Both the position numbers and the translations under genes were made by a program. Shown piece after piece: positions 7,087 to 62,723 of a stretch of DNA of 64,000 bases. The notes beneath the pieces are model-generated. The model was not told the DNA's origin. It was given only the letters and a program-made list of their open reading frames with translations, and ran no database searches. This DNA comes from a virus, in the IMG/VR virus record IMGVR_UViG_3300042564_006854, positions 4,579 to 68,578 of that record; one strand, given 5' to 3'. Position 1 is the stretch's first letter, and each line of letters opens with the position of its first letter.

Positions 7087-7647
7087 ATGTTAGTTAATTT
7101 TAAACAGTGGGTGGCATTAAATGAAAATTTAGGATCGCTTGAAAGTAACATATCTGATCTAATTAATCAATTTTTTATAAAATTTATGGATGAATTAGAT
7201 GATGAATGCCTAGAAAAAGGATATGGTTGTCTTTCTCAAGACAATCGAGAGGATAATAAACTGTTCATACAAGTTAGTGCAACTCTTGAAAATGAAGAAG
7301 AGTGCGAAATTAAGATTAAAATTAAAATTAATTATCGTGAACCTAAGGATCATGAAATTACTCTACTCGAAGTAGGAATGATTGACGTTAATGAATTTAT
7401 AGAAGACTGCACCATTGAATATATTGCAAATATTGTAAATACGAATATTAATGGCGAAGATATCGATATCTCTTCAGCAACAGATAATTATGATATTACA
7501 ACTATTGCAACCAGTCCATCTCTATCTTCTCCAAATGTTGAAATGCTTATGGGTTGGATCGACAATTCAATTGAAGATTGTGAATATCGTATTAATAATG
7601 GTCTACTAGATAACGATGAGGATGAAGAAGAGTGGGAAGAAGATTAA
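7087..7647 (+). CDS. acidic hypothetical protein
   Basis: 186-aa very acidic ORF; N-terminus (FKQWVALNE) weakly resembles the capsid-targeting-like motif. Confidence 0.45.
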   Translation: MLVNFKQWVALNENLGSLESNISDLINQFFIKFMDELDDECLEKGYGCLSQDNREDNKLFIQVSATLENEEECEIKIKIKINYREPKDHEITLLEVGMIDVNEFIEDCTIEYIANIVNTNINGEDIDISSATDNYDITTIATSPSLSSPNVEMLMGWIDNSIEDCEYRINNGLLDNDEDEEEWEED

Positions 7648-11846: not shown

Positions 11847-13337
11847 TTAGCTTATTGACTCTCCACTAATAATAATATCCTTAATTTTATCGTAATCATC
11901 AACTACTTTAGCTACTTGAGGATATGCTGATCTACCAAAGTTAGATAAAATATATTTGAATCCTCTAGTTGGATCATTCATTAATTGATCATTCTTATTT
12001 AAAATCTTTGTTTTTTCTTCATCTGTAAGATTAGGCATTAGAATATTTAAGATTCTTGCAGAAAATATTGAATTAACTCCAGATTTTATATAAACATTAA
12101 ATATTTCTTCTCTAGACAAACTATTTGATAATTCATCTTCTAATATACCAACAATAACATTTCGAAGATCGTCGTTAGCCTCTAAATCAAGTCGGTATGT
12201 AACTTTTACAAGAGTATTTAAAACATCTGCTGCTTTAGCATTATCTACACCTAAACTAGTTAATATTTTTTTAATTTCCTGTTCTAATGGTATTTTAGAT
12301 ACTATTGCATTTACTAAATCTTCAGGATAACCTAATCCAGAAAAATGAGCTTGTACATCCGTTGATTTTGCAATATTGTGGTTTGCCTTATTATTTGAAA
12401 CATCAACCCTACCTTGTTGATCAATGGTTGTACCCGTGGTAAACATATGATCTGTTGGAGAAAGATTAAAATCATATATATTAATTTGAAGACTCTCTGG
12501 ATTTTTACCTGCATAATTCTTCCACGCCCAATCATTAATACACCAATTTGAAACGTTTGTACAAATAGATTTTTGTGCAGATTCTGTTCTTACGCTAATA
12601 ACTAATCTTTTATTTTTGTAATAAAGTATACCGGCTTGAGGTTGAATTGCACGAATTGCATTTATTTTTTCAGAAATATCAGTATCTGCTGCACCTTCAG
12701 CCGAGCTTTTAACGTATTCTAAATATTCAAGTGGATTAGAATATCTATTAGTTGCCTTTAGCAATGTTCGACGATTACTTTTTTCGTCAGTTGGCAGAAT
12801 ATTTAATTTTTCGTCAGCATCATCAATTAGTTTAGCAGCATCATATAATTCATCTAATTGAGTTTCATTAAATGATTGTTTAATTGCTCTACGTAAAGTT
12901 CCATTTACTTTTTCAATAACCCATTTATATTTTCTTTGATTACTAATTTTATTAAGTGCATCACGTAAAGCTTCAAATGGATTTAATCCATGCACACTTT
13001 CCTGTTTTGAATACTCTTCAATTGTCATAGGTAAAGAGGTTAATGACCCAGCATTCTCTTTAATTTTAGTGTAAAGATCTGTTAAATCAGTAAGTGATGT
13101 CGCATGATCTAAATTAAACTTAACAAAGGCGTAAACGTATCCATCATTTCCTTTTAACAATTCACGTATATTTTTATAAGCTCTATTGTTTAATGCCGCT
13201 TGCTCAACCTCAGGTGTAATCTCCTCAATTTGATTAATGTCAGCATATTTTTTAATTAGGTATGATTTGGCAGCCTTGACGTTTTCATTAATACTGCTTG
13301 ATTTTGCCCATTGAGCAAAGGATAGTACTCCATTCAT
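11847..13337 (-). CDS. hypothetical protein (496 aa)
   Basis: Long uninterrupted ORF; no motif recognised. Confidence 0.55.
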   Translation of the reverse strand: MNGVLSFAQWAKSSSINENVKAAKSYLIKKYADINQIEEITPEVEQAALNNRAYKNIRELLKGNDGYVYAFVKFNLDHATSLTDLTDLYTKIKENAGSLTSLPMTIEEYSKQESVHGLNPFEALRDALNKISNQRKYKWVIEKVNGTLRRAIKQSFNETQLDELYDAAKLIDDADEKLNILPTDEKSNRRTLLKATNRYSNPLEYLEYVKSSAEGAADTDISEKINAIRAIQPQAGILYYKNKRLVISVRTESAQKSICTNVSNWCINDWAWKNYAGKNPESLQINIYDFNLSPTDHMFTTGTTIDQQGRVDVSNNKANHNIAKSTDVQAHFSGLGYPEDLVNAIVSKIPLEQEIKKILTSLGVDNAKAADVLNTLVKVTYRLDLEANDDLRNVIVGILEDELSNSLSREEIFNVYIKSGVNSIFSARILNILMPNLTDEEKTKILNKNDQLMNDPTRGFKYILSNFGRSAYPQVAKVVDDYDKIKDIIISGESIS

Positions 13338-13442: not shown

Positions 13443-13715
13443 ATGGCAAGAAAGCATATCAAAACAATGAATGAACAATTCATGATGGGAGATACTCAGA
13501 CGAAACCAACAACTGCACCTCCAGTAACTGCTCCGCCAGTGACTAGACCATTCCGACCAGTTCCAACTAAGAGACCTAGTGAAAAGGAAAAAAGTAAACC
13601 TATTGCTGAATATAATAAAATGATTGATCTATTCTTTGAAGAATTAGAAAAAGCTAAAGATACTCCAGAAGGTCAGGAGATGATTAAAAATTTATATGAC
13701 AAGTATGCAAAATAA
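13443..13715 (+). CDS. hypothetical Pro/Thr-rich protein
   Basis: 90-aa ORF with TAPPVTAPPVTRPFRPVP repeats. Confidence 0.4.
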   Translation: MARKHIKTMNEQFMMGDTQTKPTTAPPVTAPPVTRPFRPVPTKRPSEKEKSKPIAEYNKMIDLFFEELEKAKDTPEGQEMIKNLYDKYAK

Positions 13716-15207
13716 AATATTTGATTTTAAATCTTTCGTAAATGAAGTTTCATTAGAAGGAAATAAAGGAATTCCAGGAGAAGGCGGAGATAATTCATCT
13801 TCATGGCTAAGAAAGATTAACACTGAAAAAGGTGCAAGAATGGCTGAGTTCGAAAGAGAAAATCGCCAAGATATTAACCAGTTTATGCAATTTGTTGGTC
13901 AGTCTCAACAAATTCAAAGAGGACATGAAGAAGAGCTATCTAAATTAGCTGAAGATTCATTTAGAGCTCTCTTTAAGAGTTTACTTGATGATGTAGTATT
14001 AGACTTTAAAGTAGGCAATGGCTCTAGAGAAATTGTTCAAGAAACTCCAGAAGAGCAATCGAATTCAAATATTGAGATGAAGATTGAAAATATTGATGAC
14101 GAACGAATTATTAGTGAAATCGAAAGACGTAAAATATTAAGATCAATTCAACAAGGAAAAGGATTAACCTCTAAAGCAATTTTAAATTTACCGATATTTA
14201 AAAATGGAATAACTGAGATTATTGGAGCTAGGGCAGATGAATATATTCGACTCCTAAATAAGATTTCAAGCATTATGCAATTTAATGATTGGAGATTTTC
14301 AGAACAGATGATTAAGTCAATGTTAAAGGGAGGAACTGCTGGAGCATGTAAAATTGAATTTGAAGAGAAGGAAGCATTTGGTGAAAAGGAGTCAGAGACT
14401 AAACAAAAATCTGCTGAAGATCTATTAGATGAAATCGCAAATGGTGGAGATCTAGAAGAGAGTGAGGCAGCTGCTGATCTTATCGAAGGAACTGGTGCAA
14501 AAATTATTGCTAGAGGTGTAGATATGTCTGTTTTAATTCATGAAGCAATTAAAGGAATTTATATGTTACCTGTTCAATTAAGTCTAGAACACTTATCTGA
14601 AGATGAAGCTGAATTAGTAATTTCAAATACTGATACTCTATTGGATGAGGCACAAGAATTTAAGTATGGGCCAGAAATGCAAAGATCTTTCTATAAAGCA
14701 ATTATTTCAAATCCCGAAGTAAAAGAGAGACTTGATAATTTTAGAGGAAATTTAGATACTGACTCTGCTTGGAATGAAATGGGAGGATTCGAAGAACAAT
14801 TATTTTGGATGGTATTTGGCTTACTTGCAACTTCTCATCAAGATAATCCAAGCGAAATGCTAAAAATAGTGTATGCTGTTTTAATTGAAGATCAAGATAA
14901 AATAGAAAAATTATTTTATCCACTAGTTGAGGATGCTATTAAAAACCTAGATGCAGAAGAAGAATATCAATCATATAAATCTAGTGGAGGAGCTGGGGAA
15001 TATTCAGAGCCATCTAGAGAAGAACCTACATTTGAACCAGAAGAGACTTTACCAAGTGGAGGACAACTTTCTCCAGATGAAGTAAACGATGCAATTATTG
15101 ATGCATACGAAAGAGGAGATATGGAAGAGGTTAAGAGATTACGCCGAGAATATTTAGGCGAGTCTGTCCTACTTTCATATAGAGCATGGACAATTATTAA
15201 TTCTTAA
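13696..15207 (+). CDS. acidic protein with T4 internal-protein-like capsid-targeting N-terminus
   Basis: 503-aa ORF; N-terminus MQNKIFDFKSFVNE|VS resembles the T4 IPIII capsid-targeting sequence MKTYQEFIAE with an I/V-x-E cleavage context. Confidence 0.5.
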   Translation: MTSMQNKIFDFKSFVNEVSLEGNKGIPGEGGDNSSSWLRKINTEKGARMAEFERENRQDINQFMQFVGQSQQIQRGHEEELSKLAEDSFRALFKSLLDDVVLDFKVGNGSREIVQETPEEQSNSNIEMKIENIDDERIISEIERRKILRSIQQGKGLTSKAILNLPIFKNGITEIIGARADEYIRLLNKISSIMQFNDWRFSEQMIKSMLKGGTAGACKIEFEEKEAFGEKESETKQKSAEDLLDEIANGGDLEESEAAADLIEGTGAKIIARGVDMSVLIHEAIKGIYMLPVQLSLEHLSEDEAELVISNTDTLLDEAQEFKYGPEMQRSFYKAIISNPEVKERLDNFRGNLDTDSAWNEMGGFEEQLFWMVFGLLATSHQDNPSEMLKIVYAVLIEDQDKIEKLFYPLVEDAIKNLDAEEEYQSYKSSGGAGEYSEPSREEPTFEPEETLPSGGQLSPDEVNDAIIDAYERGDMEEVKRLRREYLGESVLLSYRAWTIINS

Positions 15208-24150: not shown

Positions 24151-24489
24151 ATGAAGAGATATATTAAATTATACGAAAGCTGGATTCACACTGAAAAATA
24201 TGAACTTGCCTCTAAGTTTAGACGTAAAGTTGATTCAAAGATAAAGATAACTGTTAGTCACGGTAAAATTGAAGAGATAGAAAATGAAGCAAACTATCCT
24301 TTTCCATTTTTTAAAGGTCAACCCTTTCAAAAAGCTTTTGTTAGAGGCTGGGCATGTAAAAATGGATTTTACTTAAATGGAGAAGAGCCGTGTCATGTTC
24401 CTGAAAAGAAAATCTTTGGTGTAAAGACGAAGGACGTTCCTCATGGTCATGAATGGAGAAGTATTTTTCCAGGAAAATTTAGAGATTAG
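24151..24489 (+). CDS. hypothetical protein
   Basis: 112-aa ORF; ends in TAG. Confidence 0.4.
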   Translation: MKRYIKLYESWIHTEKYELASKFRRKVDSKIKITVSHGKIEEIENEANYPFPFFKGQPFQKAFVRGWACKNGFYLNGEEPCHVPEKKIFGVKTKDVPHGHEWRSIFPGKFRD

Positions 24490-25268: not shown

Positions 25269-26483
25269 TTAGTTGATTAGATTCCACTGTGAAAAACTTA
25301 AAACGTGTGCAGTATTTTCATTTACTTCACGATAGTCTTTAAATATTTTCGTAGCTTCCTCTCCAGATATTACAAAGGAATTGTCCCATCCTTTTGTTTT
25401 TACATATGGAAATTCACTTGATGTAGAGTCAGTAGAGATATCAGTAATATTTCCAGTATTAACCAGCCAATTACCATTTCCCATCTGTTTAGCTAAGGTA
25501 ACATTATCTCCTTTTTTAATAACTCTGTCGATTTGAAGAGGAGTATTAAATATTGGCTCCTTTAACCAGTGTAACCATTTTCGACCAACTTTAATTTCAA
25601 TTGCATTTCCATTAAGTACAGAAATCTGTTTTGACTGTATAATAGGTAGTGCTCCCCAAGTATTAAATTTTTCATTTTTTTCAAGTACCCATACTTTATT
25701 TGGAGTAATATTCATCTGTTTAGGAATTGACTCAAGACTAAATGTTGATTCTCGATCTGGATCAGGTATTGCATAGAGTGTCTCCTGTCTCTTAACCAAA
25801 TTTTCATCAAAAAATTTAGAGAGTTGATCCTTAATAGGCTCACCAGAACCAAGATCAAGATTAATTGTAGAAATTCCACCAGGAGTAAGCTCAATTTGAT
25901 GACGCCTAATTAAATCTTCTTTATCATTAACCCTTATTGAGAATACTCTAGATATTCTCTCAAGTTCAGCCTTTCTACTTGATAACAGATGTTCAATTGA
26001 TTTATTAATTAGGAAAGATTTATCAGATTTCGATCGACCGTCAGTATTATACAATTTAATTGTAGTAACTTGTGAACCTATTGAAAAAATCCAAAAATAT
26101 TTACCTGTTCTAAAAATAGGTTTTCTAGTGTCGGTATCTGTTCGCTCATAAACTCTAAATACAGGCTGAGCTTTTTCTCCAGAACTCAAGGTAACTTCGC
26201 ATTTGCCTAATCGAATAAGTCCAATATTACTTGGATCAATTGTTGTATCTCTAAATACTTTACTCTTATCTGGTGTTGCAATTGCGGATAATACTTCCCT
26301 AAAAAAGGTTTGAGCTTGCATAATATCCTGATTTGATGCGTCAATTTTATCACCAGCAAGGTTAGTAAAACCAATTATTTCTAGGTTAGAGAGTCGAGTT
26401 TCTACTCTTTCTAGAAAATGAGCTCCGTCTACTCGATTTAATGTAATTGCCTCATTTATGAAAGTTTGAAAATCCTTTAGCAA
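25269..26483 (-). CDS. hypothetical protein (404 aa)
   Basis: Long ORF; no motif recognised. Confidence 0.55.
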   Translation of the reverse strand: MLKDFQTFINEAITLNRVDGAHFLERVETRLSNLEIIGFTNLAGDKIDASNQDIMQAQTFFREVLSAIATPDKSKVFRDTTIDPSNIGLIRLGKCEVTLSSGEKAQPVFRVYERTDTDTRKPIFRTGKYFWIFSIGSQVTTIKLYNTDGRSKSDKSFLINKSIEHLLSSRKAELERISRVFSIRVNDKEDLIRRHQIELTPGGISTINLDLGSGEPIKDQLSKFFDENLVKRQETLYAIPDPDRESTFSLESIPKQMNITPNKVWVLEKNEKFNTWGALPIIQSKQISVLNGNAIEIKVGRKWLHWLKEPIFNTPLQIDRVIKKGDNVTLAKQMGNGNWLVNTGNITDISTDSTSSEFPYVKTKGWDNSFVISGEEATKIFKDYREVNENTAHVLSFSQWNLIN

Positions 26484-26536: not shown

Positions 26537-27907
26537 ATGTCAGACATATTTTGTTCCCCAACCTTTGAATCATTTGCACTATTTGAAGATTCAAACTTAA
26601 GCCAAATCGGCCTTCCTAAAGAGATGATCAGAAAAATTCATACTAAAGAAGAGCACTACACTGATACTTACCCTCAAATGGGACATACATATAGATCAAG
26701 AGCAGCTATACCAATGTCGTATAAATATTTTATCCCATCAGCTGATGTTGAAATTCCAGAACCTATTAAATTAAGAGGTCGTAAATCACAAAGAAGTCCA
26801 TTCCAAGATAAAGAGGTTAGAAGTGAATATACTGATTTTGCATGGTATTTACAATCTATTCCATTTGGATCCCTTAGGACCTTTATCATTAATCCAGAAA
26901 TTGATTTCTTTATGTTCCTATATCATAAACAAGCAAGTAAAGGTGCTACTGGAGAACAATATGCAGTAATGGCATGGGACCCAGAAAGAAAAAAGGTTAT
27001 TGATTACGGATATTCTGAATTAACAACTAGTGGAGTTGACCGTTCACAATTAAGAGCAGTCCACGATACTAAAGGTGGAAATACAAATGGTAAAATCCAA
27101 GAATTTGTTAGAGCAATGACTAGACAAGGTGGAAAAAAATATTCTCCTTCTCTAGAAAAACCGCTCTATGTTTATGCATTACCAGTTACTCCTGAACAGG
27201 AGCCTAGAGTAACACGAGAAACTAGAACAGCAGCTAAAGGAGAAACTCTTGCAGCAGATTTCTTAAAAGTTTTCGCAAGTCGTTTTGCAAAAATAGCAGC
27301 AAAGGCTAAACCTCAAACTCAAGAAAAATTAATTAATCAAATTGATTCTAATTATTCGTCTAGAGTAAATGATCCTGAATTTAATGAAATGGCTCAAGCA
27401 ATTGGTTCAGATCCAGGTAGAACACAAACTTGGTTATTTTCTAAGTTTAGAGACTTTAGAAAAGAACTTTTTGAAGAGGGTAGAGGTAGAGTTCAAGGAG
27501 CACCTAGTGCGTATACTAAAACTTCTGGTTTTGAATTAGAGAAAGAAAATCAGCAAGCCAGTTCAAGAGGAGTATCATATTCTTCAGCATATTCAGTAAG
27601 TAAGAAAAAATTTAGTCCAGACGAAGAGGGTGAAGATCCTGAAACTGGATTTAGAGAAGCTCAACCAGAAAAATACAAGAGAGAATTGCCAATTGCTGGA
27701 AATTATGCATCTATTCCAAGTATTATCGGTACTCATACACTTGACGGAGCAATTGATAAATTCGCAGCATTCCTAGTTACTGGTAAAATTAAAACACCAG
27801 AAATAAGTATTGCTGGACTATTGGGTATCACTATGGACGATACCGATAATGAATTTAAAAGATCATCTGCGGCTAAAGGAAAAACGTCAGGTAACTGGTT
27901 ATTTTAA
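26537..27907 (+). CDS. hypothetical protein (456 aa)
   Basis: Long ORF preceded by AATAAATAATAAAAAAG about 24 nt upstream. Confidence 0.55.
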   Translation: MSDIFCSPTFESFALFEDSNLSQIGLPKEMIRKIHTKEEHYTDTYPQMGHTYRSRAAIPMSYKYFIPSADVEIPEPIKLRGRKSQRSPFQDKEVRSEYTDFAWYLQSIPFGSLRTFIINPEIDFFMFLYHKQASKGATGEQYAVMAWDPERKKVIDYGYSELTTSGVDRSQLRAVHDTKGGNTNGKIQEFVRAMTRQGGKKYSPSLEKPLYVYALPVTPEQEPRVTRETRTAAKGETLAADFLKVFASRFAKIAAKAKPQTQEKLINQIDSNYSSRVNDPEFNEMAQAIGSDPGRTQTWLFSKFRDFRKELFEEGRGRVQGAPSAYTKTSGFELEKENQQASSRGVSYSSAYSVSKKKFSPDEEGEDPETGFREAQPEKYKRELPIAGNYASIPSIIGTHTLDGAIDKFAAFLVTGKIKTPEISIAGLLGITMDDTDNEFKRSSAAKGKTSGNWLF

Positions 27908-27909: not shown

Positions 27910-28518
27910 ATGAAACATGTACTCTCAATTATTAATTGGACTCACCTAAATGAAAGTGAAGTTGCAGTTGAACCAGCCGATATTACAGCAGACGAACTTA
28001 AAAAAGCGTCACTTGTAGTTAATGGTCTTATTAAACGTGGATTTACTAAAACTGAGGCAATCAGTTTAGCTGGAAATATGTCAGTTGAGTCAAGATTTAA
28101 GACTGATGCGACTGATGGTAGAGCAGTAGGTTTATGTCAATGGCAAGGTGAACGATTGACTGCATTAAAATCTTTCGCTAAAGCAAAAGGAAAAGCTCAT
28201 ACTGATCTTGAATTACAATTAGATTTTATCAAGTATGAAATGAAAGATTATTACTTGCAATATATTCAAGGAGTCCCTAAGGAATTAGTATACGTTAATT
28301 CTGGAACCGTTTCTGCACCAAAATATATTAAGACTCGAAAAGAATTGACTAATACTCAAGCTATTTCTAGAGATTTTGCAACAAGTCTAGGCAGTGCAAC
28401 TAGTATTAGTTCCTTAACTAAAGAATTATGTAATCGAGTATTTAAACCTCAAGCTTCAGTTTCTCATATTGAAAGAAGAGTTGCTAATGCACTAAAGATA
28501 AGTAAAGAGATTGCTTAA
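27910..28518 (+). CDS. possible lysozyme-like / peptidoglycan-hydrolase-like protein
   Basis: GLCQWQGERL resembles the conserved segment of phage tail-lysozyme-type hydrolases; N-terminus SIINWTHLNE|SE is capsid-targeting-like. The call is weak. Confidence 0.3.
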   Translation: MKHVLSIINWTHLNESEVAVEPADITADELKKASLVVNGLIKRGFTKTEAISLAGNMSVESRFKTDATDGRAVGLCQWQGERLTALKSFAKAKGKAHTDLELQLDFIKYEMKDYYLQYIQGVPKELVYVNSGTVSAPKYIKTRKELTNTQAISRDFATSLGSATSISSLTKELCNRVFKPQASVSHIERRVANALKISKEIA

Positions 28519-47354: not shown

Positions 47355-48095
47355 TTGAAACATAGAGCACAGACTTTTAATCAATGGGTAAACGAAAAAG
47401 TTGAATATCATAAGGATCTTTGTCCTAAGTTTTGGCAAGATGGAAAAATGGATCCTGAAATAAGAACTAAACTTTTAGCAATTGCTGAAGACTTTTGGAA
47501 TTCACTAAAGTTAGAGGTTCCAATCATGGATATACAGTTAACTGGATCAATAGCAAACTTTAATTGGAATACAGACTCAGATCTAGACGTACATATAATT
47601 ATTGATTTTGCTCAAATTGATCAAAATTTAGAATTGGTTAGAAAAGCACTAGATGGACAGAGATTTATGTGGAATATGCGTCATCCAGTAGTACTTAGAG
47701 GACATGATGTTGAGTGCTATGTACAACACAAAGATGAACAACATGTTGCATCTGGACTCTTTTCAATACTTAGTGACAAGTGGATTATTGTACCAAAATG
47801 GAATGAACCTAACGTTGATGAAAAGGACGTTAGTGAAAAGATAAGAGTGGTTAAATCTGAAATCAAGATGGTTAAACAGAAAATAAAATCTGCTCAAGGT
47901 GAAGAGGCACAACAATTATATGATTATCTAGATCGAGTTAAAGCAAAAATTATGCGTGATCGTAAAGAAGGTTTAGCAAAGGGAGGAGAATTTGCAGTTG
48001 AAAATATAGTATTTAAAGAATTGCGTAGAGATGGAACAATTGAAGAAATAATAAATATTCTCTCAAATATCTATTCTAAAATTTATTCCGAATAA
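47355..48095 (+). CDS. Pol-beta-superfamily nucleotidyltransferase
   Basis: LTGSIANFNWNTDSDLDVHII fits the hG[GS]-x9-13-DhD NTase signature; N-terminus TFNQWVNE|K resembles the capsid-targeting-like motif; start codon uncertain (TTG). Confidence 0.5.
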   Translation: MKHRAQTFNQWVNEKVEYHKDLCPKFWQDGKMDPEIRTKLLAIAEDFWNSLKLEVPIMDIQLTGSIANFNWNTDSDLDVHIIIDFAQIDQNLELVRKALDGQRFMWNMRHPVVLRGHDVECYVQHKDEQHVASGLFSILSDKWIIVPKWNEPNVDEKDVSEKIRVVKSEIKMVKQKIKSAQGEEAQQLYDYLDRVKAKIMRDRKEGLAKGGEFAVENIVFKELRRDGTIEEIINILSNIYSKIYSE

Positions 48096-48113: not shown

Positions 48114-48575
48114 ATGAAAATTAATGAATGTTCATGTGGATGTGGAGGATCATCTAATAACTGTATGAAAGAAGGCGGATCTGAAGCAAATTACATGTTT
48201 TTTGGAAACCTTGAAACTATTAAACGAATGATTGATGATCTTATGAAAATGGATCCATCTAAAATTGATATGATTCTAAAAAATGGTAATCACAATTGGG
48301 CAGTAGATCATATTGCATCATCAGCAGATGATATTCAAGAAGTATATAATTTCTTAAAAAATGGAGACAATCAATCTCAATTTAAAGGGGATGCATTTGC
48401 TGAAGATCACGGTTTTGTAAAAACCTTTGAAAGCTATATTCTATCCGAATCTACGAAAAAAGATCAAGATGAAGACGGCGATAAAGATTTTGCTGATGCA
48501 AAAGTTGCGCAGTATATTGCTGGAGGAATGAGTAAAGAAGAAGCAATAAAGAAAGCTAAGAAATTTAATAAGTAA
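48114..48575 (+). CDS. hypothetical Cys-rich protein
   Basis: 153-aa ORF with N-terminal ECSCGCGGSSNNC cluster; immediately downstream of the NTase. Confidence 0.45.
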   Translation: MKINECSCGCGGSSNNCMKEGGSEANYMFFGNLETIKRMIDDLMKMDPSKIDMILKNGNHNWAVDHIASSADDIQEVYNFLKNGDNQSQFKGDAFAEDHGFVKTFESYILSESTKKDQDEDGDKDFADAKVAQYIAGGMSKEEAIKKAKKFNK

Positions 48576-49631: not shown

Positions 49632-49640
49632 TTATACACA

Positions 49641-50282
49641 ATGTCGGGTAGAGTTTTAAATTTTACGGAATTTTCTGATAAATATTCCAATTCAAGTAAC
49701 GAGCCAGTTAGCATAGATGATCTTACAAATGCTTCTTCTAATTTTGAAGAAGGATTCGATGATGAAACATACGATCAACCAGAAATAAAACCAAATAGAC
49801 CAGTTGCGGGTAACTATGAGATTACTCCATCTGCTCCTGGTGAGACAAATGCTCCTGCATTCTCAGCAGAAAATACAGAAGATATGAATGCTCCTCAAGA
49901 AGAATCAGATGAATCTGAAACTGAATTACCAAATGAAACAGAAGATACTTTTGCTTTTAATAAGTCTAAAGAATCTGAGGAGGATGAATCAACTGAAGAA
50001 GAATCTGAAGAGGAAGAAGAGGAAGAAGATGATGAGCAAGAAGAAGGAAACCCAGAAGCTGGAGCAAATCCTAAAAAGAAAGTGGAGGAAGGTTTTTCAC
50101 TAGTTAAAGGTTTTGCTCAATTTGTTAATGAACAAGCAAATGTATACTTGCCAAAGGAAGTATTTACTGAGAAGGACTATTATGCTAATAGAGAAGAGGA
50201 AGAAGAAGATGACACTTGTCCAGAGTGTGGAGAAGCACCTATTCAAAACGAATATGGAACTTCATGTGGATGTAATATGTAA
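49641..50282 (+). CDS. highly acidic protein with C-terminal Cys cluster
   Basis: 213-aa ORF with a poly-E/D tract; ends DDTCPECGEAP...CGCNM. Confidence 0.45.
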   Translation: MSGRVLNFTEFSDKYSNSSNEPVSIDDLTNASSNFEEGFDDETYDQPEIKPNRPVAGNYEITPSAPGETNAPAFSAENTEDMNAPQEESDESETELPNETEDTFAFNKSKESEEDESTEEESEEEEEEEDDEQEEGNPEAGANPKKKVEEGFSLVKGFAQFVNEQANVYLPKEVFTEKDYYANREEEEEDDTCPECGEAPIQNEYGTSCGCNM

Positions 50283-50903: not shown

Positions 50904-50904
50904 A

Positions 50905-51277: not shown

Positions 51278-51345
51278 GATTTATTATATCTTAAAACGAT
51301 AGTTAGGTTTCCAAATAAATAACACTATAAAATAAATTTTAACTT

Positions 51346-51798
51346 ATGCGTATTAAAAGACTCTATGAAGCAGATGACGTTCAACAATTACCAATGAATG
51401 GTCAAATGCAACAACAACCTCAAATGCCACAAATGGCTCCTCCTGCACCAGTTGCAACCTCTGCTGAACTAATGCCAGATTTTAGTTTCCAAGATGAACT
51501 TGAGCAAGGCGGAGAAGAGCAAGCAGCATTACCTCAACCTGATGTAATGAAATTAACTGTTCAGGAATTAATTGACCGTTGTAATAAAATTAATCCACTT
51601 GTTTGTATGGGACTACAGCAATTTATTGACTCAAACCACGAGGAGATTCTTAATCAAACAACTGGTGAAGCTCCTGAAGAGATGAATGAATTGCCAGCAG
51701 ATGATATGGATATTAATTTCTCAAAACAAATGGAACCGGAAGCTCCACAATTTTCTCTAGATCAACCTGCACAAGAATTGGACTTTCCACAAGCATAA
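51346..51798 (+). CDS. hypothetical Gln/Pro-rich acidic protein
   Basis: 150-aa ORF; AAATAAATAAC about 32 nt upstream. Confidence 0.45.
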   Translation: MRIKRLYEADDVQQLPMNGQMQQQPQMPQMAPPAPVATSAELMPDFSFQDELEQGGEEQAALPQPDVMKLTVQELIDRCNKINPLVCMGLQQFIDSNHEEILNQTTGEAPEEMNELPADDMDINFSKQMEPEAPQFSLDQPAQELDFPQA

Positions 51799-51799
51799 C

Positions 51800-52075
51800 A
51801 TGAAACTACTAAGACTCGTTGAAGGTTTCGGTGCAGTTATGATGGATCCAGATCCAGCTGAAAGAATTATGAATCCAGATACGAGTAGAGCAGTAGCCAT
51901 GCCGTTTTATCAGGGAACATCTGGGTCAGTTCCAGCACAATGGAGTAATTCACCTATCATAAGCGGTAATAGGTTCTCCAGCTCATTCGGAGCTAATCCT
52001 AGTCAGGAAAAAAAGATTAAGATCCTTTCATATGAAGAGTTTGTAGAGACTACTCGAAAATTTGCAAATAAATAA
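51800..52075 (+). CDS. hypothetical protein
   Basis: 91-aa ORF. Confidence 0.4.
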   Translation: MKLLRLVEGFGAVMMDPDPAERIMNPDTSRAVAMPFYQGTSGSVPAQWSNSPIISGNRFSSSFGANPSQEKKIKILSYEEFVETTRKFANK

Positions 52076-52092
52076 TAAAAAAGCACACTAGA

Positions 52093-52401
52093 ATGGCTTA
52101 CGTAAATAGTTTTAAAAGTTTTCAAAAGGCTGAAGAAAAGGCTGCTCAAGAGGTAGAAGCTGGAGCAAATCCAGTAGTTGATGAGCAAGCAGCTCAACCT
52201 GCGCCAAATGCAGCAGTTCAAACTACTGCAACACCTACACAAACGCCAGTAAATCCAAGCCCAGCAGTACAGGCTGCACAAAAAGCAGTAACTGATATTG
52301 ATGCACAAATTGCTGCACTAAATAGTCAAATTGCTGGATTACAAGCAAAAAGAGCAACAGCACAGGCAACTGTAAATACAGCAACTGCCCAAAAAGCATA
52401 A
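52093..52401 (+). CDS. Ala/Gln-rich low-complexity protein
   Basis: 102-aa ORF; N-terminus NSFKSFQKAEE is capsid-targeting-like. Confidence 0.4.
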   Translation: MAYVNSFKSFQKAEEKAAQEVEAGANPVVDEQAAQPAPNAAVQTTATPTQTPVNPSPAVQAAQKAVTDIDAQIAALNSQIAGLQAKRATAQATVNTATAQKA

Positions 52402-52405
52402 TTAA

Positions 52406-52849
52406 GTGGAAAGAAAAATAAAAACATATCGTCAATTTATCAATGAATCTACTAAAGAGGTGGTTTACCCAACTAATTTTAAAGGTATGGTACAGGGTGC
52501 ACTGGGTGGACTTTATACTTCGATTATGGCAATAGCTAGAGAACTAGCAAATGAAAAGGCTGCTAGAAATCCAAGCAGATATGGAGGAGATATTCAAGAG
52601 GTTGATATTACTAGAGCAATGAATATGATTTTCCATAGTGATTGGAAAAAGAAGATGAAAACTCAAGCTCTTGATCAAGTAATGAAAGGGTCAATGGAGA
52701 GAGCTGGAAAGCAGGATGAGGTAATGGCTAAAAAGAATCATCGTGCAATGGGTAGAGCTCTTGGCGATAAAGAGTTTAATATAGCAATCGATAAGTCTAG
52801 TGTTAGATTTAGTGATGAAAAGGGTGGTGGTGCAGGATCAAATCAATAA
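52406..52849 (+). CDS. internal-protein-like protein with capsid-targeting-like N-terminus
   Basis: MERKIKTYRQFINE|STK vs T4 IPIII MKTYQEFIAE|A; GTG start; 147 aa. Confidence 0.5.
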   Translation: MERKIKTYRQFINESTKEVVYPTNFKGMVQGALGGLYTSIMAIARELANEKAARNPSRYGGDIQEVDITRAMNMIFHSDWKKKMKTQALDQVMKGSMERAGKQDEVMAKKNHRAMGRALGDKEFNIAIDKSSVRFSDEKGGGAGSNQ

Positions 52850-52855: not shown

Positions 52856-53590
52856 ATGACAGAACTTGAATTAATAACGGACATAAACGATGAAATAACT
52901 TTTTCTGGAGCACTTCCATATGGACTTCCTGAAAAAGAAATTAAACGTATTATTGAAAATGCTGCTCGATATTTTTGGGATAATTGGAGATATGCAGTAG
53001 AGAGCAGATACTTATTACTTCCATTAGAACTTTTTAATAACCCAACCTTTAAAAAACTTAGGCAAATTCAATTACCAGATTGTGTACAATTCGTAGTTGA
53101 TTTTAAGGAGGCTCGAGGAGGATCAATGTTTGCAACAATAGATAGAGATTTTTCTGATCAAAAATTTATTGGTTCTGAGATATTTTTAACCCCATTTCTT
53201 GGTGAAAGTATTATGTATAGAACAGTGATGTTTTCATTCTTAGATTTAACTAGAGCAATGGTATTAGACACAATCGCATATGATTATAATAAAAATACTA
53301 AACTTCTTGGAGTTCTTGGACATACTCCTAAAACAAATGCAGTAGTTAGAGTATTTAAAAAATTAGAATACGATAAATTATTTGAAGATGAAATGTTTCA
53401 AAGATATGTAAGATCTCATGCAAAGGTAAGGCTATCTCATATGTTACAAACATTTAATTATACTCTTCCAGGAGGAGTAACTGTAAATTATCAAAACATT
53501 GTAACAACTGCTGAAAAAGAAATGGAAGAGGTTAAGACAATGATGAAAGGTGAAAATACACCAGATTGGATGTTCCTCACTAGACAATAA
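52856..53590 (+). CDS. hypothetical late protein (possible baseplate component by position)
   Basis: 244-aa ORF immediately upstream of the gp25-like gene; no motif recognised. Confidence 0.35.
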   Translation: MTELELITDINDEITFSGALPYGLPEKEIKRIIENAARYFWDNWRYAVESRYLLLPLELFNNPTFKKLRQIQLPDCVQFVVDFKEARGGSMFATIDRDFSDQKFIGSEIFLTPFLGESIMYRTVMFSFLDLTRAMVLDTIAYDYNKNTKLLGVLGHTPKTNAVVRVFKKLEYDKLFEDEMFQRYVRSHAKVRLSHMLQTFNYTLPGGVTVNYQNIVTTAEKEMEEVKTMMKGENTPDWMFLTRQ

Positions 53591-54405: not shown

Positions 54406-56124
54406 TTAAAGTTGACCTTCGCCTGAAGTTTCACCACCGTCTTTTACTTCGCTACCGCCTTCTGCAGGAGCTTCACCAGCTGGTGCGGGAGCTGCACCGC
54501 CGCCAGCAGGAGGCATTCCGCCAGCAGGAGGCATTCCAGCTGCAGCAGCTTCTTCTGAATCTTCATCTATTTGTTGATCAAACCATACTTGATTTGACTG
54601 AATTTCATTTTCAGTCATTTTCAATTCTTCTCTAATTAAATATTCAGTTGCAAAGTATGGAGTCCCATCGTCTCGTAATACTCCTTTTTTAGCTTGGAAT
54701 GAAGCTATTCGTTTTGCCTCAATTTCATTTTTCTTCATCTCCTCAAATACATTATCATTATTATAGGTAATACCGATTGAATTATTGAATTTATAGTCAT
54801 CTGCTATTTCTGGAAAATCTAGACACATTTGTAAATACCAAGGCTTAACCATCATTTCTGAAAAAGCAGAACGTAGTCGATTAATAAATTTTTGGTATCT
54901 TATCTCTTCACGAGTTATACCTTCAGCATTGAGAGTAAATGCACCCATTCCAGATTGACCTTCCCATCTAGAGTAAGGAATCTTTGAATCCATTTTTAAT
55001 TTTTTGTAGAAATAGTTAAGTAATTCTGAACCCGATAAATTTGGTCCAGGTGTTTGAAGAGCCTCTATTTTAACCTGCTGATTTTGATCATTTACAGGCA
55101 TAACATAATTCTTATAGAAGAGAATATTTGGTTTACCATCAACGTTTAATTCTCCAGTATCTCCATTAAATGAAATATCCTCCTTGAACATATTCATAAA
55201 TTCACGAACATCCTCTTGACCTTTTTGAAAACTTTTACTTCCGATTGGAACGGTTGTTGTTAATCTAATTGGAGCATTCATAACGTGCCAAATAACTTTA
55301 CTGTGTTCAATAATACGCAATAGGTTAAATGATCTAATTAAGCGTTCAACAAAGGAGACTCTTTTTGTTCTAAAGTGATTAGCATACGAAATATAGATTA
55401 CTTGAGAGTCATTAAGTACTCGAGTAGAGCCGCTCTGTTGATCGTATTGTAGCCATTGCATATAAACTTTACCTTTAGCATCCTTTTGTAATTGTGGAGC
55501 AATACTTGCGGGGTCTAATTCTTTAAATCCGATAATTTCCTTAGGTTTTTCTAAATTATCATAGATAATCTCAAAGGAAAGGTGTCCCTCTACTAGGAAT
55601 TGAAAGGCATATTGCCAAGCTGAAATACTTTCAGAAAATCCCCAAGCAGTATAGACTTTTTCAAAATTATTATTATATTTTTTAATAATTTTATCTTGAA
55701 AAATTAGACGCTCCTCTTTAGTATTTCCATGATATAGCATTTTACCAGTAAGATCCCTAGGATAGATAAATCTATTTTCTTCATCAAATACAATCATGTC
55801 ATCAACAATTGTCTCAAGAACAAATTCAATTTCACCATTTGATGCAATATCTCGTAGACGTTCCCTTTTTACTACATAGTCAAGTTGAAAAAAAGCAATT
55901 GCCTTTGATCTTAATTGAGAAGTAGTATCTGAAATTGCCATTGAGAACTTTAATAATTCATCATTTGCATTTAATCTAGAAGTACGAGATTGTAGTTGGC
56001 CTTCAATGAAACCAATTGCTTGTGAATTTTTAAGTAAAAGATCCTCGTGTCGAGTTCCAAATTTACTTAAGTTTGATAGAGCACTACCTGCTCTTCTTCC
56101 TGATGTATCTAAAAATCCTGCCAT
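54406..56124 (-). CDS. portal vertex protein, T4 gp20-like
   Basis: [22 protein letters not shown] vs T4 gp20 [41 protein letters not shown] vs [20 protein letters not shown]; Ala/Pro/Gly/Glu-rich C-terminal tail as in gp20; 572 aa. Confidence 0.75.
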   Translation of the reverse strand: [572 protein letters not shown]

Positions 56125-57332: not shown

Positions 57333-57641
57333 TTATCCTAAGTATTTTTCAATTAGTCTATCAGCATCTTCTGGACCAAGTTTTCCAGTTTCTACTAATT
57401 TTACCAATAGTGCAGCAATTACCACTTTTTCTGGAACGTCCTCATCTGAAACTTCAACTTCTCCACGTTCAGCAGCAGCTGATAAATCATCGTAAGCTTC
57501 AGCAGCAGCCGACTCTACCTCCTCTTCTGAACCAACTAATTCAACTAATTCATCAAGTAAAGATTCATCTAGGTCAAACTCTAGATCAGTCTCCTCCATT
57601 TCATTTATTCTGTATTCTCTTAAAGACATTACTCTTCTCAT
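57333..57641 (-). CDS. hypothetical acidic protein
   Basis: 102-aa Glu/Asp/Ala-rich ORF. Confidence 0.4.
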   Translation of the reverse strand: MRRVMSLREYRINEMEETDLEFDLDESLLDELVELVGSEEEVESAAAEAYDDLSAAAERGEVEVSDEDVPEKVVIAALLVKLVETGKLGPEDADRLIEKYLG

Positions 57642-57666: not shown

Positions 57667-58803
57667 TTACACATAGAGCAAATCTAGTGGAGATTCTGAA
57701 AAGTTGGACAAAACATATTCATTAAATGATTCGAGGGTAAGTGAAGTATCCTGTTTTTTCATAAATGTATAGAGGTCATTGACGTCTTTTATTAATCGAA
57801 CAATTCGATAATCCGCACTAAATCTTTTTCGTAAATCTGACATTACTTGATTCCATAGAAAAACACGATATCCTTTTTTAATAAGATCAAGCGATTGTGT
57901 TTTACCTGCTGAATCACTATCAAAAAGAATTAATGTATTTGATTTAGTTAATAGATTTTCAAGCAGTAATTTACTTTTTGAAATACCAGTTGTTGCAATT
58001 GCGTTATTAAGAAACATTGCATCAATTTGACCCTCAGTAACCATAATAGGTTTTGAAAAGTCAACATTAAGTACATTAAAGTAATTATTAACATTATCGA
58101 TATCTGAAAGAATATCATCACTAATATTTTTAATGAGACCGTTCTTTTTTAGTTCAGAGTAGTTTTTAATTAGATATTTTGGACCAAACGTATCTTCACC
58201 GATTCTACGTATTGCAAAACCAAGTATTTTACCAGAACGTTGATCTAGGTTAAAAAGATATATCTTATCCTCTCTTGAGTCAAAATAACTACACCTATTA
58301 AACGCTGGTAGATTATCTAGAGATCGGCCGCTAATAAAGAGACCAAGTTCAGTATCTGGATCAATTTCACTACATGGAGTTAATGAAAATCTGTGAGCAA
58401 CCTCTTCTATTTTTAGGAGATGGTCACTTGCATTTTTATTAATTAGTAATTCGATTAAGGAACCTCTCTTCTTTTTAGAAGTTTGAGGTACCCATTTAAC
58501 TTCTGATGATTTTACATCAGGTATTCCAAGAGAATATTTAAGAGAAAACTTTGCAATAAATTTAGGAAGATCTGCTTTTACTCCACAACCATCATTATAG
58601 CATTTATAAAAACCTCGTTCAGGATAGAGATTACCCCTTTTCTTTTTAGAATCAGTCTTGGAATCTCCGCAATATGGGCAAGCAAAATTAAGTTTTTCGC
58701 CAGATTCATAAACCATTTGCTTAAGCCTATCTTCAGGAAATCTTTTCTTTAAGAGATCTTTTATAAATCTCTCTATATTATAACCCGTCAACAAATCAAA
58801 CAT
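57667..58803 (-). CDS. DNA primase (zinc finger plus TOPRIM; T4 gp61 / T7 gp4 primase type)
   Basis: CPYCGDSK...C.NDGC zinc-binding motif and TOPRIM MVTEGQIDAMFL...ILFDSDSAG. Confidence 0.75.
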   Translation of the reverse strand: MFDLLTGYNIERFIKDLLKKRFPEDRLKQMVYESGEKLNFACPYCGDSKTDSKKKRGNLYPERGFYKCYNDGCGVKADLPKFIAKFSLKYSLGIPDVKSSEVKWVPQTSKKKRGSLIELLINKNASDHLLKIEEVAHRFSLTPCSEIDPDTELGLFISGRSLDNLPAFNRCSYFDSREDKIYLFNLDQRSGKILGFAIRRIGEDTFGPKYLIKNYSELKKNGLIKNISDDILSDIDNVNNYFNVLNVDFSKPIMVTEGQIDAMFLNNAIATTGISKSKLLLENLLTKSNTLILFDSDSAGKTQSLDLIKKGYRVFLWNQVMSDLRKRFSADYRIVRLIKDVNDLYTFMKKQDTSLTLESFNEYVLSNFSESPLDLLYV

Positions 58804-60979: not shown

Positions 60980-61744
60980 ATGGCAAGAGGAAGAAGTAAA
61001 CTAAGTAAAGACGAGATTGAAGAGATTGATCTTTGGCAAAAAGAAAGAGAAGCACTGGTTACTGCCAAGCTCTTTACAAATAAGATAGAAATAAAGTGTA
61101 GATCCAAAGCTCAAAAGGATGCGATCACAGCTATTGAAAATCACGACATATCAATTATAACTGGTCCTCCAGGAACAGGTAAAACTTATCTCTCTTGCGC
61201 AAGAGCCTTGAAATACGTAAAGGATGATCCTGGAACTTACAAAAAGATTATCTTAATAAAATCAGTTAATGTACCTAAGGATGAGGAAATAGGTTACCTA
61301 AAGGGGACAATGGAAGAGAAAATGGAGATGTACATGTATCCATTTATCTCAAATTTCCATAAAGTTATTGGTAAACAGGCAACAGAGGCCCTTAAAGCAA
61401 ATGGAACAATTGAGATTCTTCCAATTAAGTTTGCTCTAGGAGTTACACTAGACGATTCAATTATTCTAGTCGATGAAGCTCAACAAATAGCAAAAGATCA
61501 CCTACATACTCTAATTACTAGGATTGGAACCAATTCTAAAATGGTTTTCTTAGGAGACATTAAACAAAAATCAGTAAATAAGGGTCAAAGGAGTGCTCTT
61601 GAAATCTTAATGAAATATTTTATTGAGATTGAGGAAATTGGAATCACTCAGCTTTCAAATGATGATATTGTGCGCCATCCAATTATTAAAAAGATTGAAG
61701 TAGTATTTGAAAAAATTGAAAATGAGGAAAAGCTAAATAAATAA
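60980..61744 (+). CDS. phoH: PhoH-like ATPase
   Basis: ITGPPGTGKTYLSCARALKYV Walker A in the PhoH context; ILVDEAQQ Walker B; 254 aa, typical of marine phage PhoH. Confidence 0.8.
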   Translation: MARGRSKLSKDEIEEIDLWQKEREALVTAKLFTNKIEIKCRSKAQKDAITAIENHDISIITGPPGTGKTYLSCARALKYVKDDPGTYKKIILIKSVNVPKDEEIGYLKGTMEEKMEMYMYPFISNFHKVIGKQATEALKANGTIEILPIKFALGVTLDDSIILVDEAQQIAKDHLHTLITRIGTNSKMVFLGDIKQKSVNKGQRSALEILMKYFIEIEEIGITQLSNDDIVRHPIIKKIEVVFEKIENEEKLNK

Positions 61745-61761
61745 AAATAAAATTAAAAATT

Positions 61762-62274
61762 GTGAAAAAAGTAGTTAAATCATTCAGCCAATTTATAAAT
61801 GAAGCTAAGTTCTATCATTCATTACCAAATAGATCAAATTCAGGAAGAACTAGACTAAGAGATGAGTATCGTAATCTTCCAAGTGCTGAACAGGACGATA
61901 TTCAGTTAATTGCATCTCAAATTGAAGAACTTGATCCAGCATCGATCGGAGCAATTGCAGATAAATTAAGCAGATTTGATAATATCCAGCAAGTAAAAGA
62001 TTTTATGATTAAAAGATTAGAATATTTGGAACAATTAGATGATTCAGAAGAAGAGGAGTCAGATAGATTTGAACAAGACTTTAATCGCAATCTATTTAAT
62101 TTAAGAAAAAATGAAAATTACGGCTTATTTGAAAATGAAAAAGGAGATGAGGTTGATTTAAAAATATACCAATCTGAATTAAATCTCTTAAATAGACTTA
62201 AACCAACTGCTGAAAAACACTTAAAAAGAAAAAAGTTTCTTGAAAAAGAAATTGCAAGATTATCTAAAAACTAA
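61762..62274 (+). CDS. internal-protein-like protein with capsid-targeting-like N-terminus (paralog A)
   Basis: MKKVVKSFSQFINE|AKFYHSLP; GTG start; TAAATAAATAAAAATAAAA motif upstream; 170 aa. Confidence 0.5.
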   Translation: MKKVVKSFSQFINEAKFYHSLPNRSNSGRTRLRDEYRNLPSAEQDDIQLIASQIEELDPASIGAIADKLSRFDNIQQVKDFMIKRLEYLEQLDDSEEEESDRFEQDFNRNLFNLRKNENYGLFENEKGDEVDLKIYQSELNLLNRLKPTAEKHLKRKKFLEKEIARLSKN

Positions 62275-62316
62275 AAAAAAAGCCTATTTTAAAATAAATA
62301 AAAATAAAAAAATATT

Positions 62317-62670
62317 ATGAAAAAAAATATTGTAAAAACTTTTGGACAATACGTTAATGAAGCAAAGTTTCATCATTCATTGCCACAAGGAGAAACTAGA
62401 TTACGTGATCAATTTAGAGGATCAGATAGTGGTGTTCAGGGAGAGATTGAACAATTGGCATCAGAATTAGACCAAGCTGGATTGTTAAAGCAATTTACTA
62501 AAACTCTTTCTAGATTTAGATCAATTGAAGAGCTTAAGGATGCAATGATGAGCGCAGCAACTAGTATGGACACAATGGAGGAACCTTCTTGGAATATTAG
62601 AGGAGCTGAAGGCGAAGATGAAGAAAATACATCTGGCGGAGGATATTATTACGCACCAAGCGACTATTAA
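62317..62670 (+). CDS. internal-protein-like protein with capsid-targeting-like N-terminus (paralog B)
   Basis: MKKNIVKTFGQYVNE|AKFHHSLP...RLRDQFRG parallels paralog A; 117 aa. Confidence 0.5.
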   Translation: MKKNIVKTFGQYVNEAKFHHSLPQGETRLRDQFRGSDSGVQGEIEQLASELDQAGLLKQFTKTLSRFRSIEELKDAMMSAATSMDTMEEPSWNIRGAEGEDEENTSGGGYYYAPSDY

Positions 62671-62691
62671 ATTTAAAAATTTTATCTAAAA

Positions 62692-62723
62692 TAAAAAAGC
62701 GACTCATTCGGGTCGCTTTTTTG
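62692..62723. terminator. bidirectional rho-independent terminator
   Basis: AAAAAAGCGAC-TCATTCGG-GTCGCTTTTTTG between convergent genes. Confidence 0.6.

Follow-up and report, generated by a model that had tools for sequence, protein, structure and literature searches.

Many proteins encoded in a 64,000-nucleotide (nt) stretch of viral DNA (the window; positions 4,579 to 68,578 of the IMG/VR virus record IMGVR_UViG_3300042564_006854) begin with a short leader peptide that ends in [IVL]-x-E. Sequence comparison indicates that this leader is very probably a capsid-targeting and cleavage sequence of the phage T4 type, corresponding, in a distantly related lineage, to the sequence that opens the T4 internal proteins. 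This reading is supported by a match at the functional residues of the T4 sequence, by the hypervariable slot in which two tandem leader genes (here IPa and IPb, 61762-62670) reside, and by the T4-type head genes of the phage lineage. Open reading frames (ORFs) are named below by their lowest window coordinate, and an arrow marks the predicted cleavage point.

The leader motif is concentrated at protein N-termini

Motif statistics were obtained for the 120 called ORFs of the window, comprising 19,774 amino acids (aa). The strict pattern [FYW]xx[FYW][IVL]NE, scanned in the six-frame translation, matched seven times, each time within a long ORF, and 6 of the 7 matches ended within the first 17 residues of the protein. 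Shuffling the residues of the 120 proteins (2000 trials) produced a mean of 0.2 strict matches and a maximum of 3. Thus, the initial annotation of this DNA was correct in assigning a shared leader motif to several proteins. Within the first 30 residues, strict matches reached a density of 1.67 per 1000 aa, compared to 0.06 elsewhere, and the [IVL]NE tripeptide alone was enriched 6.7-fold there. The N-terminal strict carriers are ORFs 13696, 25269 (minus strand), 47355, 52406, 61762 (IPa) and 62317 (IPb), with unrelated mature parts. In addition to these six, about five variant leaders are present. The initial annotation proposed a repertoire of at least 5, possibly 10, injected proteins; the set of leader carriers is larger, at least 11-18 in 64 kb.

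A family logo was built from 63 unique leaders of the window and 130 related loci, giving the consensus M-K-[KRN]-x-[IV]-K-[TS]-[YF]-x-[QED]-F-[IV]-N-E↓[AS]. Conservation extends to positions outside the search pattern: Lys at -9 (45/63), Thr or Ser at -8 (48/63), Ile or Val at -10 (48/63) and Ala or Ser at +1 (34/63). The leaders are 8-18 aa long. In all, 105 leader genes were found in 2406 ORFs, spanning 19 distinct mature-domain families.

We considered whether the motif might be the translation of a nucleotide-level element, such as an initiation enhancer or the promoter-like TATAAAT in TTTATAAATGAA, or a remnant of common ancestry among paralogs. TTTATAAATGAA can encode F-I-N-E and resembles the late-promoter-like motif described below, and IPa and IPb are indeed paralogs. 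However, the copies differ in synonymous codons (TTT/TTC, ATA/ATC, GTT/GTA, AAT/AAC, GAA/GAG), and their amino-acid replacements are conservative (F/Y/W, I/V/L), indicating that selection acts on the peptide and not on the DNA. Moreover, copies also occur internally and near C-termini, the mature parts fall into 19 unrelated clusters, and the matches far exceed those in shuffled proteins. A DNA-level origin, strongly disfavoured by the synonymous codon differences, was rejected, and this explanation as a whole is hardly credible.

The leader matches the functional residues of the T4 sequence

In the T4 record, IPII and IPIII begin with MKTYQEFIAE↓A and IPI with MKTFKEFTSTTTPVSTITE↓A (MKTFKEF...ITE↓A). 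Some orthologues of ORF 52406 begin with MEKLVKTYQEFINE↓A, where KTYQEFINE↓A is identical to KTYQEFIAE↓A of T4 at 9 of 10 positions. In the IPIII leader, residues 4 and 7 are reported to be the main determinants of targeting, and residues 8 and 10 those of processing (PMC9026906). The corresponding T4 residues, Y4, F7, I8 and E10, are the four best-conserved positions of the leaders analysed here (Y/F at -7, F at -4, I/V/L at -3 and E at -1). The closeness to the IPIII targeting sequence that had been noticed at first sight therefore holds at exactly the positions that function in T4.

Further likeness to the IPI/IPII/IPIII/Alt system of T4 lies in the short N-terminal leader (10-19 aa; KTY(Q/R)(E/Q)FINE↓(A/S) here and MKTYQEFIAE↓A in T4), a predicted [IL]-x-E cleavage signal, putatively late genes and unrelated cargo domains, and in the presence of a gp21-family protease, a gp23-family capsid protein and a gp20-family portal within this phage lineage. 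T4 Alt is trimmed at its C-terminus as well (PMC9026906), and ORF 25269 likewise carries signals for predicted processing at both termini. T-even internal proteins are diverse and have nothing conserved but the targeting sequence (Rao & Black 2010, PMC3012670; Kuhn & Thomas 2022, PMC9026906), and the leader has been suggested to be an evolutionary device for loading varied proteins in T4-like phages (PMC9026906). Several features differ from T4. Portal and protease are only 23% and 29% identical to their T4 counterparts, and the Asn before the Glu is almost fixed in the leaders. Protease and repeat-rich scaffold form a single fusion protein, in contrast to the separate gp21 and gp22 of T4. The 11-18 or more carriers in 64 kb compare with 4 non-essential cargo proteins in T4, and longer class-B leaders (F-x-x-W-x-x-L-N-E) as well as internal and C-terminal copies occur here.

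IPa and IPb occupy a hypervariable slot

IPa (61762..62274, plus strand) encodes 170 aa from a GTG start. Its leader comprises residues 1-14, MKKVVKSFSQFINE↓AKFYHSLP (nt 61762-61803), and the predicted mature part has a mass of 18.5 kDa and an isoelectric point (pI) of 5.3. IPb (62317..62670, plus strand) encodes 117 aa from an ATG start, with a leader of residues 1-15, MKKNIVKTFGQYVNE↓AKFHHSLP (nt 62317-62361), and a mature part of 11.4 kDa and pI 4.6. The two proteins are 40% identical over 94 aa (E = 5e-21) and are thus true paralogs, confirming the coordinates, starts and tandem arrangement initially described for this pair with its leader↓AKF junctions.

The pair fills a slot (61745..62703) between the PhoH gene (60980-61744) and a helicase gene (62704-63714+). 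A terminator-like hairpin with flanking A- and T-runs (62693..62722) lies between the convergent IPb and helicase genes. The PhoH and helicase flanks were recognisable in 38 loci and are 84-91% identical to those of the window in closer relatives. The gap is as short as 78 bp and as long as 3.2 kb among relatives and contains 0-3 small genes, nearly all of which carry the leader on mostly dissimilar mature parts. The slot genes of loci L102 and L008 have a common mature domain with different leaders. A k-mer search with the 170-aa IPa found only 2 relatives. A profile search of 1.84 billion representatives recovered ~13 small relatives with the leader and an ARFHHSLP...RLRDEFR domain, divergent beyond it; some seemingly unrelated slot genes, for example that of L012, are distant members of the IPa/IPb family. 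With its conserved flanks and with mature sequences that are swapped between close relatives, the slot resembles T-even internal-protein loci, but its genomic location and neighbours are different, and none of its proteins is known to inhibit a restriction system.

Late-promoter-like motifs of the form (G/A)ATAAATAA (T4 late promoters: TATAAATA) are located 23-25 nt 5' of both genes, at 61737..61744 (plus strand; 25 nt for IPa) and 62294..62301 (plus strand). Of the sites in the window, 16/23 lie within 60 nt 5' of a start on the same strand. All leader genes had been described as following such motifs. We found the motif directly, at 12-32 nt, in front of 8 leader genes; the others are inside operons, and the total number of sites is not above chance.

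The phage lineage encodes T4-type head proteins and an S77 prohead protease

The window (33% G+C) contains genes for a T4-type portal of the gp20 family (54406..56124, minus strand; Pfam Portal_T4, E = 5e-61; 23% identical to T4 gp20), a T4 gp13-type neck protein (52856..53590, plus strand) and a gp4-like head-completion protein with a TnsA-like fold (56755-57255). A nucleotide search against GenBank phages returned a single 157-bp match, indicating that no close cultured relative exists at the DNA level. The nearest portals belong to uncultured huge phages (37% identity), followed by Prevotella Lak phages, Tenacibaculum phage PTm1 and Sphingomonas phage PAU (28-34%). Related portal loci in IMG/VR number at least 171, and homologues of window proteins occur on contigs of up to 266 kb. 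The window thus derives from an uncultured phage family that is widespread and has genome sizes of roughly 200-270 kb. By analogy with these relatives, our guess is a Bacteroidota host.

Searches by tblastn of the window and 80 portal loci with T4 gp21, gp22, gp23, gp24, gp67 and gp68 and with the protease and capsid protein of PTm1 returned nothing, and in relatives the 10 kb on either side of the portal gene contained no protease. A leftward walk from the window added only about 1.5 kb of early-type genes. However, a rightward walk from the window end through related contigs reached a protease-scaffold gene and a capsid gene. The protease-scaffold protein (658 aa) has an N-terminal Peptidase_S77 domain (38.9 bits, cut-off 27) that shares 29% identity with gp21, its DHP and VSSR motifs aligning with NHP and VSSRG of T4, and a repetitive, scaffold-like C-terminal part. 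The protease was present in 28 contigs of the same family (e.g. L110:9944-11920), and directly 3' of its gene the relatives encode a gp23-family capsid protein (117 bits). On contig IMGVR_UViG_3300032116_000040, the protease/capsid module is found together with a portal (L072) 88% identical to that of the window. We infer from the shared gene order that the window's own genome encodes an S77 protease as well. The prohead protease expected by the initial annotation elsewhere in the genome was thus located in relatives sharing gene order, not in the window itself.

The scaffold region contains 5 [IL]NE sites in the 658-aa protein, ~12-fold above the internal background of the window proteins (0.62 per 1000 aa). 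The Glu closest to the conserved core on its N-terminal side in the capsid protein is part of ...P-[IL]-F-E, or of A-I-N-E in a distant relative. Although the cleavage points are predicted, both findings are consistent with a T4-like [IL]-x-E specificity. Note that a DnaJ-like (J-domain) gene is located directly 5' of the protease-scaffold gene (L110:8869-9897, L092:11731-12741).

Leader carriers elsewhere in the window

In the putative late operon at 47355-52849, beside the neck and portal genes, almost every gene has a leader or leader-like N-terminus. Its last gene (52406..52849, plus strand), just 5' of the gp13 neck gene, encodes a conserved 147-aa protein beginning with MERKIKTYRQFINE↓STKEVVYPTN. 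The mature part is basic (pI 9.6) and predicted to be helical, with a low-confidence helical hairpin in the AlphaFold model; homologues form more than 281 clusters and occur on contigs of up to 266 kb. The first gene (47355..48095, plus strand) has a TTG start and encodes a nucleotidyltransferase-like protein with the leader MKHRAQTFNQWVNE↓KVEYHKDL. Two further products carry internal sites that recur in orthologues. The 153-aa protein of ORF 48114 (48114..48575, plus strand) has a leader-like site, FVKTFESYILSE↓S, near residue 113 (VKTFESYVNE↓V in orthologues). The 213-aa poly-acidic protein of ORF 49641 (49641..50282, plus strand) contains the canonical site KGFAQFVNE↓Q at residue 164, in addition to a leader-like N-terminus (VLNFTEFSD), making it a candidate prohead-core protein or a protein with a long propeptide. 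Short or degenerate leaders are present on three small, probably late genes at 51346..52401 (plus strand). ORF 51346 begins with MRIKRLYE↓A and ORF 51800 with MKLLRLVE↓G, the orthologues of the latter having M.KSFDRFINE↓V. In ORF 52093 (MAYVNSFKSFQKAEE), SFKSF is followed by ...AEE instead of [IVL]xE. ORF 50905 (34 aa), which had been listed as a full motif carrier, retains the aromatic residues and lacks the Glu at the cleavage position.

Outside this operon, a strong copy absent from the initial list is MLKDFQTFINE↓A on a 404-aa protein (ORF 25269; 25269..26483, minus strand). At residue 389, this protein has another conserved site, IFKDYREVNE↓N, with a leader-like tail, VLSFSQW, after it. 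All 60 homologues retain the N-terminal leader and the second site (IF.D.R..NE↓S), again followed by a leader-like tail. The AlphaFold model (predicted local distance difference test score 80) depicts a well-folded two-domain protein of 44 kDa, for which a PDB fold search found no match. Confidence in the model is low only for the first three residues, the interdomain linker and residues 13-18 and 388-395, the latter two segments adjoining both predicted cleavage sites.

A 503-aa acidic protein (ORF 13696; 13696..15207, plus strand) begins with MTSMQNKIFDFKSFVNE↓VSLEG; this strong copy, like those on ORFs 52406 and 47355, reads as first described. A variant leader, MKTYVKSFEAINE↓S, opens a 301-aa protein (ORF 40609; 40609..41514, minus strand), with KSFEAINE↓S in place of KSFGSINE↓S and KSYFEKIDE↓S in its orthologues (MKEYVKSFGSINE↓S and MAKHIKSYFEKIDE↓S). 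A 102-aa very acidic protein (ORF 57333; 57333..57641, minus strand) begins with MRRVMSLREYRINE↓MEE; here SLREYRINE↓M compares with SFREYKLNE↓M in an orthologue, and orthologues conform to ...[FY]-[KR]-[IVL]-[NY]-E. Class-B leaders are carried by a 186-aa very acidic protein (ORF 7087; 7087..7647, plus strand; MLVNFKQWVALNE↓N) and a lysozyme-like protein (ORF 27910; 27910..28518, plus strand; Pfam Phage_lysozyme2; MKHVLSIINWTHLNE↓S, with MNYILNIRDWRKLNE↓D in an orthologue). In relatives the class-B leader takes the forms ILNFKNWVRLNE and ILKFNQWVKLNE, and the conservation of ILNFKNWVRLNE validates the leader of ORF 7087. A longer variant, MNGVLSFAQWAKSSSINE↓N, is present on a 496-aa protein (ORF 11847; 11847..13337, minus strand), for which no orthologues were retrieved from the viral contig collection. 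A 456-aa protein (ORF 26537; 26537..27907, plus strand) has the candidate leader ...PTFESFALFE↓D, retained in orthologues. Finally, a 112-aa basic protein (ORF 24151; 24151..24489, plus strand) begins with MKRYIKLYESWIHTE↓K, with an uncertain cleavage site; its orthologues retain a leader-like LFESW (MKQYIQLFESWHREEE).

Thus, among the ORFs initially thought to have weaker versions of the motif, ORF 47355 is a strict carrier and the leaders of ORFs 27910 and 7087 are kept in orthologues, while the cleavage sites of ORFs 52093 and 24151 are unclear. Our analysis adds one strong carrier (ORF 25269, minus strand), several copies of variant type or internal location, namely the variants on ORFs 40609, 11847 and 57333 (all minus strand), 26537, 51346 and 51800 and the internal copies in ORFs 49641 and 48114, and the C-terminal copy in ORF 25269 (residue 389).

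Proposed function of the leader and alternative explanations

If the leader acts as in T4, its genes would be transcribed late, and each protein would bind the scaffolding core of the nascent prohead through the leader's amphipathic aromatic face (positions -7 and -4). After closure of the shell, the scaffold-fused gp21-type serine protease (Peptidase_S77) would cut after the Glu of [IVL]-x-E, mostly I/V-N-E, releasing the mature protein inside the head. The scaffold, in which L-N-E recurs several times, would be processed simultaneously, as would the N-terminal portion of the capsid protein, ending in ...I-F-E. Internal and C-terminal signals on some cargo suggest long propeptides or trimming at two ends, as for T4 Alt. 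Docking, cleavage, head retention, ejection and any effector function would all follow from this comparison. By analogy with T4 IPI* and Alt (PMC3012670, PMC9026906), some leader proteins may be injected with the DNA and serve in host takeover or anti-restriction, and thus in countering defence.

Several observations weigh against a T4-like role. The phages of this family are all uncultured, so packaging, cleavage and ejection are predictions from sequence. The protease and capsid genes lie outside the window and were assigned via gene order, the relatives' proteins being 70-90% identical. The late-promoter-like motif is not over-represented in the window (23 sites vs 16 expected). In Pfam and PHROG scans, the mature domains displayed no homology to T4 IPI, IPII, IPIII or Alt, indicating analogous cargo rather than homologues. 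Most mature parts are acidic (pI 4-5.7), unlike the basic DNA-binding IPII and IPIII, and some may therefore be scaffold-like and degraded instead of delivered. The cultured relative PTm1 has no obvious or convincing leaders in the 68 of 224 kb scanned; its capsid protein contains LTINE and IINE near the N-terminus. In addition, a 649-aa coiled-coil-rich protein that heads the baseplate block of relatives (L092:2259-4208, L001:14679-16521; ~8.7 kb beyond the right end of the window) resembles a leader at either terminus, beginning with MSFEAYLRNWLSLTESIVNE (MSFEAYLRNW...IVNE) and ending with ...KKVSNFSDFLKSKD. If this is a tail protein, the leader signal is not head-specific.

The 649-aa protein also raises the question of whether the amphipathic aromatic N-terminal helix could be an uncleaved interaction tag for a chaperone, a membrane or tail assembly. 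ORFs 50905, 52093 and 24151, which retain the aromatic residues and have no clear [IVL]xE site, would fit such a role. However, the Glu and the aliphatic residue two before it, needed only for processing in T4, are the most conserved residues here, and an uncleaved tag would offer no reason for their upkeep. The scaffold part of the protease-scaffold protein is itself rich in this tripeptide signal, and the leaders are devoid of hydrophobic signal-peptide character. We consider an uncleaved tag very improbable.

The nature of the cargo bears on whether leader proteins are delivered at all. Most leader proteins had no match in Pfam or PHROGs, the exceptions being the lysozyme domain of ORF 27910 and the nucleotidyltransferase-like ORF 47355. 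The latter has weak nucleotidyltransferase matches in Pfam and matches a PHROG family without annotated function (E = 3e-38); a PDB sequence search returned no match. Related proteins are encoded by Lak and huge phages, Maribacter phages, T4-like cyanophages and Caulobacter phage Cr30. Function prediction for the mature domains, as proposed in the initial annotation, thus yielded these two enzyme-like assignments and left most domains without a match. Since several leader proteins are conserved and very acidic, they are likelier to be prohead-core components than injected effectors. The conserved, often very acidic or basic cargo encoded beside the neck and portal genes probably represents core or internal head components, and fast-turnover small slot proteins such as IPa and IPb are, by analogy with T4, the best candidates for ejection with the DNA.

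Taken to its limit, this argument would have the leaders mark only prohead-core or scaffold-like proteins, degraded by the protease and expelled during maturation, with little or no delivery and no injected repertoire. The family-wide conservation of leader proteins beside the neck and portal genes that are extremely acidic or of low complexity (ORFs 49641, 57333 and 7087, pI ~4; ORF 51346) speaks for it, as do their resemblance to T4 gp67 and gp68, precursors of internal peptides, and the internal sites, which imply fragmentation. Yet fast-turnover slot genes are poorly explained as assembly parts, and so are the enzyme-like products of ORFs 47355 and 27910 and the well-folded 44-kDa protein of ORF 25269. 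Moreover, T4 uses one and the same signal for core components and ejected proteins (PMC9026906). A purely core-forming role is thus unlikely, and we favour a T4-type targeting leader that serves both kinds of cargo.

The leader in other phages

The 462-kb huge phage LR756500.1, which has the closest portal, encodes seven N-terminal leaders in the 100 kb around the portal gene, for example MKYIKEYEDFINE↓A, MKFLKSYEEFLNE↓N and MEFVKTYLEFINE↓Q. We found no published description of this leader outside T4 and its close relatives, and a full-text peptide search retrieved only T4 engineering work.

Phages of the phiKZ type (phiKZ, 201phi2-1, SPN3US) are likewise large, with many head-internal proteins (predicted here) and a T4-related protease (gp175/gp245), and have multiple sites per protein and paralogs with conserved N-termini (PMC5694885). 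The protease-scaffold of the present family also has a weak Peptidase_S80 match. However, the propeptides of phiKZ-type phages are mostly 80-160 aa long and end in S/A/G-x-E, in contrast to the 8-18 aa and [IVL]-x-E found here. Membership in this long-propeptide class of Peptidase_S80 substrates was rejected on these grounds; a phiKZ-like style was seen only in ORF 52093 (..AEE) and in ORFs 49641 and 48114, whose N-terminal regions are long and acidic.

As judged by sequence identity, the leader has diverged far less from its T4 counterpart than have the head proteins. A near-identical 10-residue signal despite portals of 23% identity suggests strong co-conservation with the docking partner and the protease pocket, which has a bearing on the assembly of T4-type heads. 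Tentatively, the T4 targeting sequence could be an ancient, near-invariant address label common to T4 and distant large and huge phages, probably of Bacteroidota, with the variable slots as arsenals of injected counter-defence and takeover proteins, including enzymes; we rate this wider proposal as slightly less likely than not. If it were true, the packaged-protein repertoire of uncultured phages would be readable from sequence, and a nucleotidyltransferase and a cell-wall hydrolase would be delivered ahead of gene expression. If the leader works as in T4, it would provide a sequence-only marker of capsid-loaded proteins in a family of ~200-270-kb phages and apparently in huge phages too. The variable small proteins, the nucleotidyltransferase-like and lysozyme-like proteins and the 44-kDa protein would be candidate effectors for tests against defence systems. 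The T4 targeting tag is already in use for packaging foreign proteins and might function in a very different phage chassis. The mechanism is textbook T4 biology; what is added here is its breadth and scale rather than a new kind of mechanism.

Other features of the window

A tRNA with a CTA anticodon, which reads UAG (labelled tRNA-Pyl by ARAGORN), is encoded at 43072-43145 (minus strand). TAG ends 11 of the 120 called ORFs and read-through is mostly short, giving no sign of stop-codon recoding that would affect the calling of leader genes. ORF 17091-17672 is an exception, with the next gene in frame after its TAG.

A second N-terminal module of ~40 aa, MSFINWG(H/E)E(T/S)PEQ...R..E..MMFEQ.., is found on different proteins at 8669-10297 and 11086-11280 of the window (both plus strand) and at L110:13687-13893, L138:15822-16742 and L139:2715-4124. 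Its carriers include a 542-aa protein with PKD, LRR and Laminin_G_3 domains, a 64-aa truncated paralog and a small gene directly after the capsid gene of relatives. The module may serve in capsid attachment or decoration. Another N-terminal pattern (MKRKSHIESFLEHTEKLNISGVSES, MKDNKHIQSFNEHQENLNISDVSES) is present on the small ORFs 19277-19555 and 20204-20452 (both minus strand), which form a separate paralog family without the late-promoter motif.

The family-B DNA polymerase is apparently split into overlapping ORFs of 378 and 478 aa (57667-58803 and 58796-60232, both minus strand). Only the second matches Pfam DNA_pol_B, and gene calls for all related contigs show the identical split. Three auxiliary metabolic genes on the minus strand encode a nicotinate/nicotinamide phosphoribosyltransferase-family protein (33128-34819), a PRPP-synthetase-like protein (36511-37407) and a protein with a weak Macro-domain match (34822-35346), suggesting NAD salvage or ADP-ribose handling. 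Other non-structural genes, again on the minus strand, encode an SPFH/Band 7 membrane protein (31271-32716), an AAA ATPase (7648-8589) and an M28-family peptidase (10300-11040). A tyrosine recombinase (Phage_integrase with a SAM-like N-terminal domain) is encoded at 17703-18506 (minus strand) in this otherwise lytic-looking, T4-like phage, and a similar gene is present in the relative L138.

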